Translations under genes and position numbers: made by a program
Shown: positions 39,907 to 54,127 of the stretch, piece by piece
Layout of the letters: the number at the start of each line of letters is the position of its first letter
How positions within the stretch are numbered: position 1 is the stretch's first letter
Assembly (NCBI GenBank): GCA_965249105.1
Contig: OZ252219.1
Coordinates: 4,823,108-4,887,107, forward strand
Length of the DNA stretch: 64,000 nucleotides
Direction: 5' to 3'
From: Vicinamibacterales bacterium
Lineage (GTDB): Bacteria; Acidobacteriota; Vicinamibacteria; Vicinamibacterales; UBA8438
The notes under the pieces: generated by a model
The model's input: only the letters and a program-made list of their open reading frames with translations
The model's database searches: none
Told to the model about the DNA's origin: nothing

Positions 39907-39934
39907 CGACCATCACGCCCACGGCGGGGCGCAG

Positions 39935-40757
39935 GTCGGGTAGACCAGGGTCGTTGCTGACCCTGGCCCCCCACAGATCCGGACGTGCGGGTTCTGCCGC
40001 ATCCGGCTCCTCGACAGATGGCTTCGCTACGCGCCGTCGCGTACCCGTTGGTCCAGGAAGCCAGGCGATGGCCACCGCCATCCCCAAGGCTTGTCTGGCC
40101 AGTTCGGCTATCCGTTGTCGTGACGTGGAGACGGGACCCAACCTCGGTGTGTTGGCCGTCTTTCCCTCCACCGGTGCCACCTGCCGGTGCCCCCTTCCCT
40201 CCACGGGGTCTCGTGGGCTCAATTCCCCCGTTTCGGCGGTACTATGAGACACTCCGACTCCTCGCCGTCCATCCCCCCGCGCTTCGTTGCCTTCGCCCGG
40301 CGGTACCATCCGAGCACCTGCGGCTTCGCTCCGTCGGACGCCAGGTGCTGCGTCCACGGCCTCGGGCTTGGTGAGCCGGTGCCCGCCCCCCGGCGGTCTT
40401 TAAGATGGAGACGACGAGGCCTCCCGGGTTCCCGGGAAACCCACCCGCACGCATGCCACGCGCTCCGACCCCGGCGAGGTCGCCGCCTCCACGGCCTCTG
40501 AGATGCGGCGAGATAGCCTTCCGTCCAACGCACGACGTCGGCCCTCACAAACAATGCATTTCGGGGCTCAATCACGCGGCCTACGGGCTCCCTGTGAACG
40601 CTTCGCGCCCTGGGTCACCCCAGGCCCACGCATCACTCGGTTCCGGCTGGCGGCCGACCTTGGCCGGATGGGATTGGATACCCACAGGGTTTCGAACAAG
40701 GTTTCAAAGATCACATCACGGCATCTTGTCCCCCTTGACCGGGCTTTCCCGGCACAC
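39935..40757 (-). mobile_element. group II intron with internally deleted IEP (823 nt)
   Basis: 5' GTGTGCCGGG; domain V GAGCCGGATGCGG...CGCACGTCCGGATCTGTGGGG; domain VI ending CTACCCGAC; only IEP N- and C-terminal stubs remain. Confidence 0.9.
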
Positions 40758-40987
40758 GCGTTGGTGCACGGTTTCCTTCGCTCCCGGCGAGAACCGTCGA
40801 TGCCCTGGCCATCGTGACGCCAAGAGGGCAGGATCTCGACAGGAAGTCGAGAATGCATCCGCAGGACAGGACGACATACCGCGTCGGAAACTGGCCAGCG
40901 TACGACCGAGCGCTTGTCGAACGCGGTGACGTTACGATGGGGTTGGCACCTGCCGTGACCGCCACGTGGGAGGTCACGGGGCACTGA
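40758..40987 (+). pseudogene. IS5-family (IS903-group) left end and transposase N-terminal stub (40853-40987)
   Basis: G|GCGTTGGTGCACGG terminal repeat-like sequence; YRVGNWPAYDRALVERGDVT. Confidence 0.7.
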
Positions 40988-41012
40988 CGCCCCTATATGT
41001 CAAGACAGTCGT

Positions 41013-42098
41013 TCAGGCAGCCAAGTCTGCGGCTTGGCGCGCTCGGTGGTCTGCCATCACGCGTTGAAAGATCTCGCGGGCGAGAAAGCGTTTGAGACAG
41101 CGGATGATCTCCCGTTTGGGCCGCCCTTCAACGGTGCGTCGTTCGACGTAGTTGAGGGTTGGTGAGTGGTACCGCATCCGCACGATGACGGCCCGGTGGA
41201 GCGCGGCGTTGGCCTGTCGATGACCGCCGCGGTAGAGGCGGTGGCGGCCCGTCGTCATCCCGGACGAAGCCGGGATGGGGCAGGCCCCGCAGAGCTTGGC
41301 GAAGGCGGCTTCAGAATGAATCCGATCGGGGTTGTCGCCAAAGATGATCAGCATCTCGGCGGCGGTGTCGGCACCGATGCCAAAGCCCTCACGCAGCGTC
41401 GGCGAGGTCTGGGTGGTGAGTCGACCCAGGTGACGGTCGTGGTCCACGATCTCGACGGAGAGAGCGAACCAGCGCCGGGCGAGCGCCCGGAGGGTATGTT
41501 TCGCCGAGGCAGTCGGCGTATCGATCGTGCCGCATCGCCATCCGCGGCAGCGTTTGAGGAGCGCCTGGTCGGCGAGCGGGTGGAGGGTCTCTCGCAGCTC
41601 CGGCGGGGCGTTGACGACGATCTGCTTCAGCGTGATCATCGCCGAGGTGCGGGCTTTGACCGCCGTCCGCCGCGCGACCTTGAGGTGGCGCATCATCTCG
41701 ACCGCCCCGTCCGCGGTCTTCGGGATGGCGGTCGATTGGCCAGCCAGGACCGACCGCGCCGCGGTCTCGGCATCCACGGGGTCGGACTTCCCGGCGATTC
41801 GACGTGTGCGCCGGTCGCCCCGGTTCACTTCGAGCACCTGGTGCCCGGCTCGCCGGACCGCGCGCGCGAGTCCCGCCCCGTAGCTGCCGGTGCCCTCGAT
41901 GCCGAACGCGGCGATGCGTCCGTGACGCTCGGCCCAGGTGATCAGCTGTTGGTAGCCGTCTGAGTCGGCGGCACACGATCGATCGTCGAGGCGGATCCCC
42001 CACGTGTCGATCGCCACGGCCACGTGGACGTGCTTGTGGGTGTCCACGCCGACGATCACCTTCCGCGCGTCGGGTTGAATAGTCCTGTGGTTCGTCAC
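41013..42098 (-). CDS. IS110-family DEDD recombinase/transposase
   Basis: VGVDTHK, GIEGTG, KSDPVDA, GIGxxTAA, PIPASSG, GGHRQAN. Confidence 0.95.
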   Translation of the reverse strand: MTNHRTIQPDARKVIVGVDTHKHVHVAVAIDTWGIRLDDRSCAADSDGYQQLITWAERHGRIAAFGIEGTGSYGAGLARAVRRAGHQVLEVNRGDRRTRRIAGKSDPVDAETAARSVLAGQSTAIPKTADGAVEMMRHLKVARRTAVKARTSAMITLKQIVVNAPPELRETLHPLADQALLKRCRGWRCGTIDTPTASAKHTLRALARRWFALSVEIVDHDRHLGRLTTQTSPTLREGFGIGADTAAEMLIIFGDNPDRIHSEAAFAKLCGACPIPASSGMTTGRHRLYRGGHRQANAALHRAVIVRMRYHSPTLNYVERRTVEGRPKREIIRCLKRFLAREIFQRVMADHRARQAADLAA

Positions 42099-42345
42099 CG
42101 GGTGGCCTCCTCGGGTGCTGGTGCGTCGGCCGGATGGGCGGACAGGACTGTGATGGGTCGACGTTGCAGCAGGCCCCTATTGGGTCACTGCCCATCCGGT
42201 CAGACGGGTTGCCGTGTCCATCGCCGACGGACGATGACCGACAGATCAGTAGCGAGGACCGTAGGTCAGTCAAGTTGCGGGTCAGGCCACCACCCGCCGG
42301 CACCCACCAGTGTCACCGAGCGACCTCGGCAGGCAGCGGAATGAT
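42099..42345 (-). ncRNA. putative IS110 bridge RNA region
   Basis: Left-end non-coding region with nested stems 42130-42139/42190-42199 and 42124-42130/42223-42229. Confidence 0.55.
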
Positions 42346-42519
42346 GCTCACAGTCAAGTTGACGAGCGGAGCGCATGATTGTGGCTGGATGGCGGACTCC
42401 CGTCATCCTTAGTAGTAGGCACACGTCACCTCATCCCACACGCGGAACGAACGCGTTCTCAGCGAACGGTGGTGAACCGCTCGGAGCAGGTGGCGCCCAA
42501 CCCGAAAGAGGTTCTGAAC

Positions 42520-42880
42520 AAGGCCGTCGGGATGATCTACCTCAAGCTGCGGCAGGCGGGAGCACTGGTCAACCACAAGCGGGTGGAGCGCCTGTATACC
42601 GAGGCCAGGCTGCAGGTACGTCGGCGGCGACGCAAGAAGATCCCGGTGGCGGACCGCCAGCCCCTGATACGACCCCAGGCGCCGAACGAGGTCTGGTCTG
42701 CCGACTTCGTCTTCGACCGCACGGCCGATGGACGGGTGGTGAAGTGCCTGACGGTCGTCGATGACGCGACCACCGAAGCGGTGGCCATTGTGCCTGCCCG
42801 CACGCTCGGTGGGCTGCCGGTCACCCGCGTGCTTGATCGACTCGCGTTCGAACGCGGCCTGCCGCGTGTCCTGCGCACCG
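42520..42880 (+). pseudogene. IS3-family OrfB fragment
   Basis: VNHKRVERLY, PNEVWSADFVFD, LTVVDDAT; truncated before the second catalytic Asp. Confidence 0.9.
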
Positions 42881-43106
42881 CGTGCTATGAACAAGTTGTC
42901 AAGGCTCTCGGCGCCGTTGGGTCGTCCAATCGAGGGACAGATACGGGCTCAGGCTCGGTGGAGCCGGCCCATCGTGCGTCATCCGGACTCATACCCGAGG
43001 AGCGGAGGGTGCCAGGCGGAAGTACGTCGAGCTGTCTTCGACGCGAAGAGCTCAGGACAACGGTGGGCATGGCCTCCTCTCCGGTTGGAGCCGGAGCCTC
43101 AGGTTT

Positions 43107-43510
43107 CTACGCGGCGATCGACTCGTCCCTCCACACGTGGTCAGCATCGAACGCCGTGCGGTTCTTGACGACGGCGAACGCGTAGTGCAGCAGTTTGGTC
43201 ATGCAGGCCCCGATCGCCTGCATCGGAGGCAAGGGACGCGTGACTCGCTGCGTGAGGCGCTCGTAGTGGGCTTTGAGGCGCGGGTTATGGCGGAGGGACG
43301 ACAGCGTGGCCATGTAGACCACGGCGCGCAGCTGGGCCCGCCCGCGCTTGGTGATCGGCGTCCGTCCAGCGTGCTGGCCGCTTTCCCGTCTCGAGGGCTG
43401 CAGGCCGGCCAGCTTCACCAACTGCCGGCCATGCTGGTATCTGTCGAACGGGCCAATCTCAGCGATCAGCCCGGCGATGGTGATCCACCCGATCCCCGGC
43501 AGCGTGGCGA
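43107..43510 (-). pseudogene. IS110-family transposase C-terminal fragment
   Basis: LPGIGWITIAGLIAEIG, AGLxPSRRESG, ITKRGR; 5' part cut off at the L-end repeat. Confidence 0.9.
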
Positions 43511-53395: not shown

Positions 53396-54043
53396 GTTTT
53401 AATCCGGGATCAGCCGGGATCAGCCGGGATGACCCCGGGATGCGACTCTCGCGGTCGCAACGACGTACGGGGACGCGGCGGATCCAGCGTGGCGCGTTGC
53501 GCTCGACGACGAGGCGTTCGTCGTCGATGCCCGGGTCGGTGTACGGTCGGTCGTGCAGCCCGGCGTGGATCACGCGCACCAGCTTGTGGGCGGTGGCCAG
53601 GATCCATCCCGGTAGCCGACGCTCTGTGGGCGCAACGACTGACGCCGAGTCCAGCGCCGGGACGCCACGTTGCACCGGCCGGTGCAGGTCCAGCGCGCCG
53701 CGCGTCATGGTCAGTTTCTGTGACGTGGGCTCGGCCGCCGCGCCGCGAGAAGTTCTTGCAGCGGCATATTCCGGGACTTGCCGGGCTCCATCCCGGAATC
53801 CGACGCTCCGCGGACCCGACGACTGACAGGGGTCAGTCGTACATGGCTCTCTCAAAACCCCGGACCACCGAACCTGGCTCGCGAGACGATCACGCGGACA
53901 CCGGCCGCCACCTCGCCCCCGGCGCGACTCACCTCCCCGGCGCCGCGCCCGTGACCGCTGAAATCGCCTGAATCCAACGAGGAAATCGGGGGGCACCCCT
54001 CGAGCGATCCCGAAGTGCGAGCATCGGCAGGACTGGGTGGCGG
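53396..54043. repeat. L arm F: terminal repeat 53396-53470, unrelated insert, L body 53858-54037 abutting the tRNA CCA end
   Basis: GTTTTAATCCGGGAT(CAGCCGGGAT)2GACCCCGGG; ...GCATCGGCAGGACTGGG|TGGCGG. Confidence 0.9.
53474..53610 (-). pseudogene. IS110-family transposase extreme C-terminal fragment
   Basis: ATAHKLVRVIHAGLHDRPYTDPGIDDERLVVERNAPRWIRR. Confidence 0.6.
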
Positions 54044-54127
54044 AGGGACTGGGATTCGAACCCAGGGAACGCTTTCACGTTCAACGGTTTTCAAGACCGC
54101 CGCCTTCAACCGCTCGGCCATCCCTCC
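54038..54127 (-). tRNA. tRNA-Ser(UGA)
   Basis: GGAGGGA/TCCCTCC acceptor, CTTGAAA loop, long variable arm, GGTTCGAATCC, discriminator G, encoded CCA. Confidence 0.98.

Follow-up and report, generated by a model that had tools for sequence, protein, structure and literature searches.

Group II introns that make their home in insertion sequences (IS) are known from Sinorhizobium meliloti. RmInt2 of strain GR4 is an intron of class D and structural type IIB that lacks the endonuclease (En) domain, and every copy of it is located within an inverted repeat of ISRm17 (PMC4615759, PMC5894124). It shows a lagging-strand bias, tolerates relaxed pairing between the second exon-binding site (EBS2) and the matching intron-binding site (IBS2), with 4-5 bp being sufficient, and gives head-to-tail products; its authors note that an IS repeat presents one site on each strand (PMC4615759). 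RmInt1, which is also En-less, has ISRm2011-2 as its home and has been proposed to restrain the spread of this host IS (PMC5894124, PMC3035460). Bacterial introns without an open reading frame (ORF) are rare and nearly always occur alongside a related intron-encoded protein (IEP), as has been reviewed (PMC4424553). The TeI3 introns of Thermosynechococcus elongatus are ORF-less through one deletion event, outnumber their parents and are mobilised by TeI4 driver IEPs (PMC2882425). In the IStrons, a group I intron is fused to an IS (PMC4227781). The subject of this analysis is an 823 nt ORF-less group II intron at the end of an IS in a Vicinamibacterales bacterium of the Acidobacteriota. It was found within a stretch of 64,000 nucleotides, referred to here as the window, that covers positions 4,823,108 to 4,887,107 of contig OZ252219.1 in assembly GCA_965249105.1. 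The genome (G000) is one contig of 6.1 Mb with 63.6% G+C. It is highly likely that the element is derived from a 2030 nt parent intron, homes to the ends of IS903-like elements, and is helped in trans.

The intron runs from position 40757 (nt 1) to position 39935 (nt 823) of the window on the minus strand, as do all of its features given below, and its boundaries are the same in all 8 intact copies of this genome and in 20 fetched from others. When the whole window was scanned with Rfam, two group II matches were obtained, both on the minus strand. RF02005 (group-II-D1D4-6) is matched over its full length at 40677-40459 (138.7 bits, E 2e-39), which is the core of domain I (DI; intron nt 81-299), and RF00029, the model for domains V and VI (DV and DVI), is matched at 40011-39935 (45.5 bits, against a gathering threshold of 40). 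The 5' terminus is GUGUG (40753-40757) and the 3' terminus is ...CUACCCGAC, closing with GAC (39937-39935), in agreement with the 5' GUGYG and 3' AY termini of group II introns. DV is a hairpin of 34 nt with the sequence GAGCCGGAUGCGGCAGAACCCGCACGUCCGGAUC (intron nt 749-782; 39976-40009), and includes the AGC triad and a 2 nt bulge. In DVI (39935-39975) the branch-point A is bulged at 39941 (A817), 7 nt from the 3' end. Judged by its sequence, the ribozyme architecture is that of an ORF-less, IIB-like group II intron. Its identity as an intron is far beyond chance, given eight intact copies with identical boundaries. A sequence-only reading of the window had placed an ORF-less group II intron with intact 5' end, DV and DVI at 39935-40757, and the Rfam matches, the termini, the AGC triad, the bulged A817 and the lack of a reverse transcriptase (RT) ORF confirm this.

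Support for the remainder of the fold comes from comparison. An alignment of the first ~470 nt of the intron with seven relatives, spanning DI to DIII, was folded with RNAalifold, and the consensus for these 8 sequences comprises 109 pairs. Compensatory changes support 49 of these, and the covariation term is -14.3. Compensatory pairs are present in the DI core; for DII and DIII the support is this comparative alignment and not RF02005. The folding of the single 823 nt sequence by minimum free energy was uninformative (z = -1.3, domain structure not recovered), and Rfam models and comparative folding were therefore used in its place. The sequence-only reading had named an RNA unable to fold DI-DIII as grounds for giving up the intron; instead, the RF02005 match and the 49 compensatory pairs among 109 show the fold to be supported. 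Pfam gave zero matches in the ORF of 232 aa that overlaps the intron, the sole long ORF there.

A full-length parent, which the earlier reading had recommended looking for, is present in the same genome as three intact introns of 2030 nt that are 1-2 nt apart from one another: FL1 at 1048975-1051004, FL2 at 1674282-1676311, and FL3 at 2480800-2478771, the last of these in a non-IS gene for an ABC permease. They encode a 453 aa IEP that matches RVT_1 (2e-35) and TIGR04416, the NCBIfam equivalog for the group II RT/maturase (339 bits, cut-off 300). There are 4 complete IEP frames in the genome, the fourth being in a 5'-truncated copy. The ORF-less element is the parent minus nt 684-1128 and 1167-1928, by which ~1.2 kb of the ORF is gone; its nt 1-684, 685-721, and 722-823 correspond to parent nt 1-683, 1129-1166, and 1929-2030. 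Three pieces of the ORF are retained. Codons 1-36, with both ATGs mutated, are in domain IV (DIV; 40073-40180), in what is presumed to be DIVa, the IEP-binding region. A 37 nt relic of the RT domain (GFLDQRVRDG; 40037-40073) is found between the two deletions, and the last codons survive with the stop codon TAG (40025-40035; TAG at intron nt 728-730). With no RT ORF of its own and an intact 453 aa RT/maturase parent in the same genome, the element is non-autonomous, as had been proposed.

The IEP stubs described in the sequence-only reading were half right. The N-terminal stretch VEGKTANTPRLGPVSTSRQRIAELARQA represents genuine IEP codons 1-36. The other, RRVAKPSVEEPD, is not IEP; it results when the 3' strand of DIV, and DV itself, are read out of frame, mostly downstream of the TAG that is retained, and GAGGAGCCGGAU within it is the start of DV. 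The second true relic, GFLDQRVRDG (intron nt 695-724), had been overlooked.

Between the ORF-less element and the parent there is 1 difference in nt 1-342 of the DI-DIII region, with EBS1 and EBS2 identical, and there are 7 differences in the last 102 nt. The changes in DV and DVI are in a loop or a bulge or preserve pairing through wobble. Divergence in DIV is ~8% in the non-coding 5' part and ~19% in the ORF stub. The divergence is thus a mosaic, with 1/342 over nt 1-342 versus 7-19% over nt 343-823.

A domain search of the parent IEP found RT and X domains only, and no HNH or endonuclease (D/En) domain. The absence of D/En domains is one trait of class D (RmInt1-like) proteins. The class D motif LX3AX3PXLF[V/A]HW (PMC4615759) is unmatched in the C-terminus of the parent IEP, ...WTRFLRLLARYPLPRMTAAHFATGV, and identity is ~36-41% to the Sinorhizobium IEPs found and 41% to IEPs of enterobacterial plasmids. 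An assignment to class D was dropped because the motif is absent and the Sinorhizobium IEPs are no nearer than others. Identity to the plasmid IEPs was uninformative as to class.

The site of insertion is highly constrained in sequence. The 5' junctions all read ...(R/C)TGCA(C/A/T)CAACGC followed by GUGUG, bar two or three sites, ectopic or decayed, whose changes are compatible with G·U pairing, and in every copy C comes next at the 3' junction, followed by unrelated sequence. EBS1, GCGUUG (intron nt 227-232; 40526-40531), is in a hairpin loop (intron nt 225-232) and forms 6/6 pairs with IBS1, CAACGC, at positions -6 to -1. The EBS2 candidate, UGCAU (intron nt 200-204; 40554-40558), is in an internal loop (intron nt 196-208) and pairs with (A/G)UGCA, the IBS2, which spans positions -12 to -8. 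The base between IBS2 and IBS1, at -7, varies among C, A, and U in occupied sites, as expected of an unpaired linker. Within the full target context the predicted insertion site is GTGCACCAACGC, with C next. There are 21 exact occurrences of the word TGCACCAACGC in the genome; 11 are followed by the intron and 7 are empty IS ends, all seven of which continue with C. IS ends without an intron are located, for example, at genome positions 845418, 1027686, 1591366, and 1644579.

Occupancy of the IS ends follows this complementarity. Ends with intact IBS1, IBS2, and +1 C are occupied by an intron or a remnant in ~14 of 25 cases, versus at most 1 (a remnant) of at least 27 ends with IBS mismatches. 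The empty mismatched ends read ...CCAAGGC before A (in a sister IS, at least 14 ends), ...CAAAGC before C, and CGCACCAACGC (CGCACC...). Relatives of the intron with IEPs ~60% identical have other EBS1 loops and other 5' exons, and in these the loop covaries with the exon: 6/6 positions pair in L024 (CCGCAC/GUGCGG), 6/6 counting wobble in L030 (UGAGAG/UUCUCA) and L038 (CGUAAC/GUUAUG), and 5/6 in L031 and L034. The IS-end habit is therefore specific to this intron lineage. The EBS-IBS pairing that had been put forward as a check is thus borne out by EBS1, EBS2, and the covariation in five relatives, and homing to IS ends, as had been claimed, agrees with a target of TGCA(N)CAACGC before C that is consistent across copies.

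The host IS elements belong to the IS5 family and are 1053-1089 bp, with a terminal inverted repeat of GGCGTTGGTGCA... and the other end reading ...TGCA(C/A)CAACGCC. They encode a DDE transposase of ~325 aa (PF13737 and PF01609; NF033579, 244 bits) that has 35-36% identity over 97-99% of its length to genes annotated as IS903B family. Elements of the IS903 group in ISfinder are ~0.95-1.15 kb, with terminal inverted repeats starting GGC; the host elements are of this size and start with GGC. No target-site duplication, of 9 bp or of any length, was found at the 17 IS903-like copies examined, and the left and right flanks of one IS often match different repeat families. It may be that rearrangement erased the duplications. 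The mosaic flanks suggest frequent recombination between IS and intron copies, or else insertion without duplication. Since the flanks are chimeric and the 9 bp duplication is missing, the elements are called IS903-like here. The sequence-only reading had made them IS903-type, which holds for the transposase, with 36% identity end to end with IS903B, but the 9 bp target duplication could not be found.

At the window locus, base 1 of the left inverted repeat of the IS is the G at 39934 on the plus strand, identified from empty ends and flank homology; on the intron strand it is C, the +1 position or IBS3. Bases 2-225 of the left end, recognised by IS homology, are at 40758-40981 (plus strand) and contain the repeat GCGTTGGTGCACGG... 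and the first ~41 transposase codons. Removal of 39935-40757 in silico joins ...CGCAG to GCGTTGGTGCACGG. An IS5/IS903-like transposase N-terminus, YRVGNWPAYDRALVERGD, starts with ATG at 40853, 95 nt from 40758, with an alternative GTG at 40814. The spliced flank and the transposase start 95 bp further on, both part of the earlier reading, were reproduced, and where a flank unlike IS903-group ends would have spoken against that reading, an IS903-like end was found. In other copies, the outer flank is homologous to other repeats exactly as far as the base preceding the G or following the C, and this includes the C behind an inserted intron. The intron therefore sits between bases 1 and 2 of the IS, pointing outward, which confirms the earlier placement of the intron after the first base of the IS end. 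The possibility that the terminal G/C is a 2 bp GC duplication or a target preference was rejected, as in many copies the flank homologies end exactly at the borders of the G and the C (positions 199/200 and 2/200).

Other IS ends in the genome show related features. A sister IS family, with a transposase ~40% identical and ends TGCCTTGGTGCAC...GTGCACCAAGGCA, has at least 8 copies (e.g. 720517-721603, 783651-784737, and 2812524-2813610). Relative to the intron target, its ends are changed at +1 and at position -3 of IBS1, and they are never occupied. One sister copy, at 1198055-1199141, has itself inserted into a full-length intron and beheaded it. Two left ends, at G000:C1:912907 and 1322244, read ...TGCAACAACGC and then G rather than C, with a common outer flank GCCGCTTAACAACC... 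This G may be as expected of an IS that was excised from an intron-occupied end, or the two may be one duplicated locus.

A BLAST search with the 823 nt identified 8 intact ORF-less copies in the window genome, with 0-4 differences and four of them identical, along with one head-to-tail tandem and ~15 copies that are fragmentary or interrupted. Two derived substitutions (nt 434 and 710) are common to the window copy and the one at 4481963, and this suggests that a daughter copy acted as a source. Near-identical copies are found at the ends of at least five IS species, beside unrelated 3' flanks; these carriers share only ~12-14 nt at the tip, and the intron boundaries are exact to the base. 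The 8 near-identical copies, together with an allele of the window site in public reads that lacks the intron, are evidence for recent mobility of the ORF-less element itself, in line with what had been claimed for it.

It might be argued instead that the copies are inert fossils, multiplied by DNA events such as IS transposition, segmental duplication, and recombination between IS ends. The surroundings are an IS graveyard with scrambled flanks, in which the window IS is itself a truncated relic, and another genome, G003, keeps copies without any intact IEP. Among 28 ORF-less copies, 10-17% of sites are variable in every domain, as in neutral decay. Lower variation in the ribozyme domains than in DIV was looked for among these copies and not seen, and this even variation is consistent with decay after insertion, with no signal of selection. 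Copying by DNA events is nonetheless very improbable as the explanation, given that the differing IS species share so little sequence, that the intron boundaries are nevertheless exact to the base, that the 3' flanks are unrelated, and that an IS cannot carry along an intron that parts its terminal base from the repeat bound by the transposase. Nor would it account for four copies that are 100% identical, for occupancy that tracks EBS/IBS complementarity, or for the empty allele.

The head-to-tail tandem is at G000:C1:1596027-1598912 (loci L131 and L132), where nt 823 of the first copy abuts nt 1 of the second. The second copy is split at nt 519-522 by a 1236 bp IS30-family element (391 aa transposase), with a 4 bp overlap. 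Of the two, the upstream copy probably entered where the 5' exon had met the intron, even though the +1 base there is G.

In most insertions the intron occupies the left repeat, which is the one nearest the transposase gene, and faces away from that gene; at least one insertion is at a right repeat (1506542). Based on the replication direction inferred from GC skew, 9/11 intact intron copies in the window genome are co-directional with the replication fork, and in a second genome, G016, 11/12 listed ORF-less copies are on one strand. This is suggestive of the strand bias of En-less introns that prime from the nascent lagging strand. The origin is placed near 3.69 Mb by the cumulative minimum of the skew and the terminus near 2.0 Mb by a local maximum. 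Unequal replichores of ~4.4 and 1.7 Mb are implied, with a local reversal at 4.5-4.75 Mb, and the intron and IS copies of this genome are concentrated between 0.6 and 2.5 Mb.

The end preference has a bearing on another explanation, that IS and intron form a composite transposon in which the split end is still used by the transposase and the intron hitch-hikes as in an IStron. All three copies of one IS, ISb, have an intron at the left end while their perfect right targets are empty, and the units made by ISb with FL1 and ISb with FL2 differ in their flanks on both sides. The third ISb copy carries the ORF-less type, though, which requires at least two independent insertions, and intron-free copies of the same IS types exist. 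The same intron is also found in at least five IS species and at the FL3 site, which is not in an IS. The transposase would have to cleave 0.8-2 kb from its binding site, and strand bias would account for the difference between left and right ends. A composite transposon is therefore extremely unlikely.

The intron family extends to other genomes, with dozens of near-identical copies directed at one 12-base transposon end in several acidobacteria from soil. The closest full-length relative in the genome collection, in a Vicinamibacterales metagenome-assembled genome (MAG), has 85% nucleotide identity. It is preceded by ...CATGCAACAACGC and followed by C, and it occupies the left end of an IS903-like element with the transposase reading away. 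The ORF-less 823 nt form is present at full length in the species representatives G016 (at least 12 copies), G003 (at least 7 copies), G001, G002, G004, and G007. G016 belongs to a different genus, and its copies are 95-99.5% identical. All 20 copies fetched from three species (G016, G003, and G001) follow TGCA(A/C)CAACGC or a one-base variant of it, with C next in 19 and the 5' end of another intron next in the twentieth. Haplotypes are mosaic between genomes, one G016 copy being 3 positions away from the master sequence of the window genome. At nt 198, 242, 355, 361-363, 505, 514, and 665, haplotypes are shuffled among the copies of three genomes. These shared mosaic haplotypes point to probable transfer between lineages. 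Together with the mosaic divergence from the parent, they also suggest recombination or template switching between intron lineages.

A second IEP type, 50% identical to the parent protein, is encoded at G000:C1:1594701-1595942 and G016:C1:1012434-1013699, both on the minus strand (TIGR04416, 316 and 311 bits). Its intron is inside an IS903-like element, between the left repeat and the transposase start, and in both genomes it is <2 kb from an ORF-less copy. This protein is another candidate for the role of helper. The window genome encodes a third IEP type at 1433200-1434237.

Public reads were also searched. The window is contained in runs X1-X4, with 0.77-0.83 of sampled words found; these runs probably derive from the source sample. 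In the DNA run X2, a contig of unique 3' flank stops exactly at 39935. A second contig continues from 39935 through CGTTGGTGCACGG into window position 40773 and onward, and thus has the IS end without the 823 nt, at a depth of 21.8 versus 63 for the flank. This contig has TT where the assembly has TTT at 40772-40774, and the intron-free allele is therefore probably from a co-existing strain. The X2 evidence for an empty allele of the window site is good but not conclusive.

RNA of the intron is present in the metatranscriptomes X7, X10, X15, and X20, where its depth is far above that of the flanks. In X10 a contig of 853 nt joins nt 823 to nt 1, and it runs unbroken across the junction of the L131 tandem. 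A length of 823 + 30 nt is what a circular path produces at k = 31. Full-length intron circles are known for RmInt1 and Ll.LtrB, and the X10 contig fits with these. The head-to-tail junction was also sought in the DNA runs X1 and X2, where the contigs are too fragmented to tell. No ligated-exon reads were seen in the metatranscriptome analysis. Contigs in X10 and X20 that share window 39964-39993, at a depth of 120-159, join ...CCCAGGAUCUAUCCCGAC, an intron-like 3' end, to the 3' half of DV, ACCCGCACGUCCGG... These could come from a related intron with a shared 30-mer, or be a nested or aberrant junction.

A route to the present distribution can be proposed. Two internal deletions in a 2030 nt intron removed most of the ORF while keeping the ribozyme domains, the start of the ORF in DIV, and its stop codon. 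The transcribed RNA would fold and be excised with an RT/maturase supplied in trans, the likeliest helper being the 453 aa IEP that the full-length copies of this genome encode. The ribonucleoprotein would then reverse-splice into DNA where EBS1, EBS2, and EBS3 pair with 5'-(R)UGCA-N-CAACGC followed by C. This target of 12-13 nt is the tip of the IS903-like terminal inverted repeat, GGCGTTGGTGCA..., and the intron lands between bases 1 and 2 of the IS, facing outward, presumably crippling the IS end. Because the helper protein has no nuclease domain, priming would most likely be from the nascent lagging strand.

There are several points that count against this account. EBS3 was not located in the intron RNA. 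DIV, where the helper is expected to bind, has diverged 8-19% from the parent, and recognition by the parent IEP is an assumption. The window copy differs from the family consensus by three substitutions (nt 434, 527, and 710), none of them in DI, DV, or DVI. The occupancy counts come from manual tabulation rather than a systematic scan. In ISb, with perfect targets at both ends, the left is occupied in 3/3 copies and the right in 0/3, which calls for a strand-bias argument or some other preference. A single contig represents the empty allele; its shorter side is 29 nt long and it has the one-nucleotide TT/TTT difference. The X10 contig is equally expected from a transcript or DNA of the head-to-tail tandem, or from DNA carry-over. 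In G003, with its at least 7 copies, no intact group II RT was found, the two weak matches being 60 and 44 bits, and in G016, with its at least 12, the sole intact group II RT is of the 50% type, accompanied by fragments of the cognate gene. The copies in these two genomes are either fossils or users of a different helper.

The last of these points bears on the identity of the helper. The copies could have been mobilised, here or elsewhere, by a distantly related driver IEP such as the 50% identity protein, and not by the cognate 453 aa protein. This would suit G016, where only the former is intact, the nearness of its gene to an ORF-less copy in both genomes, and the divergence of the ORF-less DIV from the cognate parent. 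Drivers with relaxed specificity are documented in Thermosynechococcus (PMC2882425). On the other hand, the burst of identical copies in the window genome is accompanied by four intact cognate IEP genes. Near-identical DI-DIII, identical EBS1 and EBS2, and the same target also link the ORF-less element to its cognate parent, while the ribozyme of the second intron type has no nucleotide similarity. A distant driver is therefore unlikely, and the cognate protein is the preferred helper.

The neighbourhood of the window copy is a nest of dead insertion sequences. The IS903-like stub is truncated at 40981, where its homology ends, by an IS110-family element at approximately 40982-42350 on the minus strand. 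The transposase of this element (361 aa; 42098 to 41013) is transcribed toward the intron. An IS3-family integrase fragment follows at 42379-43185. Elsewhere in the window, at 54041-54127 on the minus strand, there is an 87 nt tRNA with a long variable arm and the anticodon loop CUUGAAA (Rfam, 59.3 bits), which is probably tRNA-Ser(UGA).

The element provides a natural family with a simple target rule and a known parent, in genomes with and without that parent. It would be a convenient system for studying maturase specificity toward a foreign ribozyme, the use of replication forks by En-less introns, and the disabling of an IS by an intron at the tip of its repeat. For annotation, it accounts for the recurrent 823 bp repeat at IS ends in these MAGs. 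A broader idea, for which there is limited likelihood, is that of a long-lived retroelement resembling a miniature inverted-repeat transposable element, spreading horizontally and multiplying in several Vicinamibacterales species, G016 and G003 with no cognate RT among them, by borrowing distant maturases. By parting base 1 from the remainder of the inverted repeat, it would cap and immobilise IS903-like elements so that IS expansion is restrained. If this is true, the intron would be a hyperparasite whose net effect on its host is to curb IS expansion.

Life as a parasite of a parasite is already documented, and the present element combines two known habits in a new phylum. The homing to IS repeats so far shown for RmInt2 in a rhizobium is hereby extended to the Acidobacteriota. 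As with RmInt2, the RT/maturase of the likely helper has no endonuclease domain, the target is in the terminal repeats of an IS, and head-to-tail tandems occur. Unlike the present element, RmInt2 is full length, autonomous, and found in one strain, whereas here an ORF-less derivative is found across several species, in another phylum. The two further differ in IS family and target sequence, the present site is between bases 1 and 2 of the repeat, and the IEP is only ~36-41% identical to those of Sinorhizobium and is without the class D C-terminal motif. RmInt1 shares the occasional ectopic insertion into genes with a similar IBS, oxi1 in its case and the ABC permease site of FL3 in this one. 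It differs in being sense-oriented within the transposase gene rather than in the terminal repeat.

The deletion of the DIV ORF with N- and C-terminal remnants, and mobilisation in trans, which is proposed for the present element, are as in the TeI3 introns. TeI3 has many targets, often inside introns, belongs to CL/IIB, has En-containing relatives, and is confined to one genome, whereas one conserved target, the IS end, is used here in several species. In Methanosarcina, ORF-less group II introns reportedly home into the ORFs of related introns, as described by Dai and Zimmerly in 2003. These too are ORF-less derivatives beside RT-encoding relatives, targeting other mobile DNA, although the hosts are archaeal and the target is an intron ORF and not an IS end. 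The IStrons resemble the present case in that a ribozyme is physically tied to the end of an IS. There, however, the IS moves the ribozyme as one DNA unit, while the present intron is proposed to move alone, as RNA.

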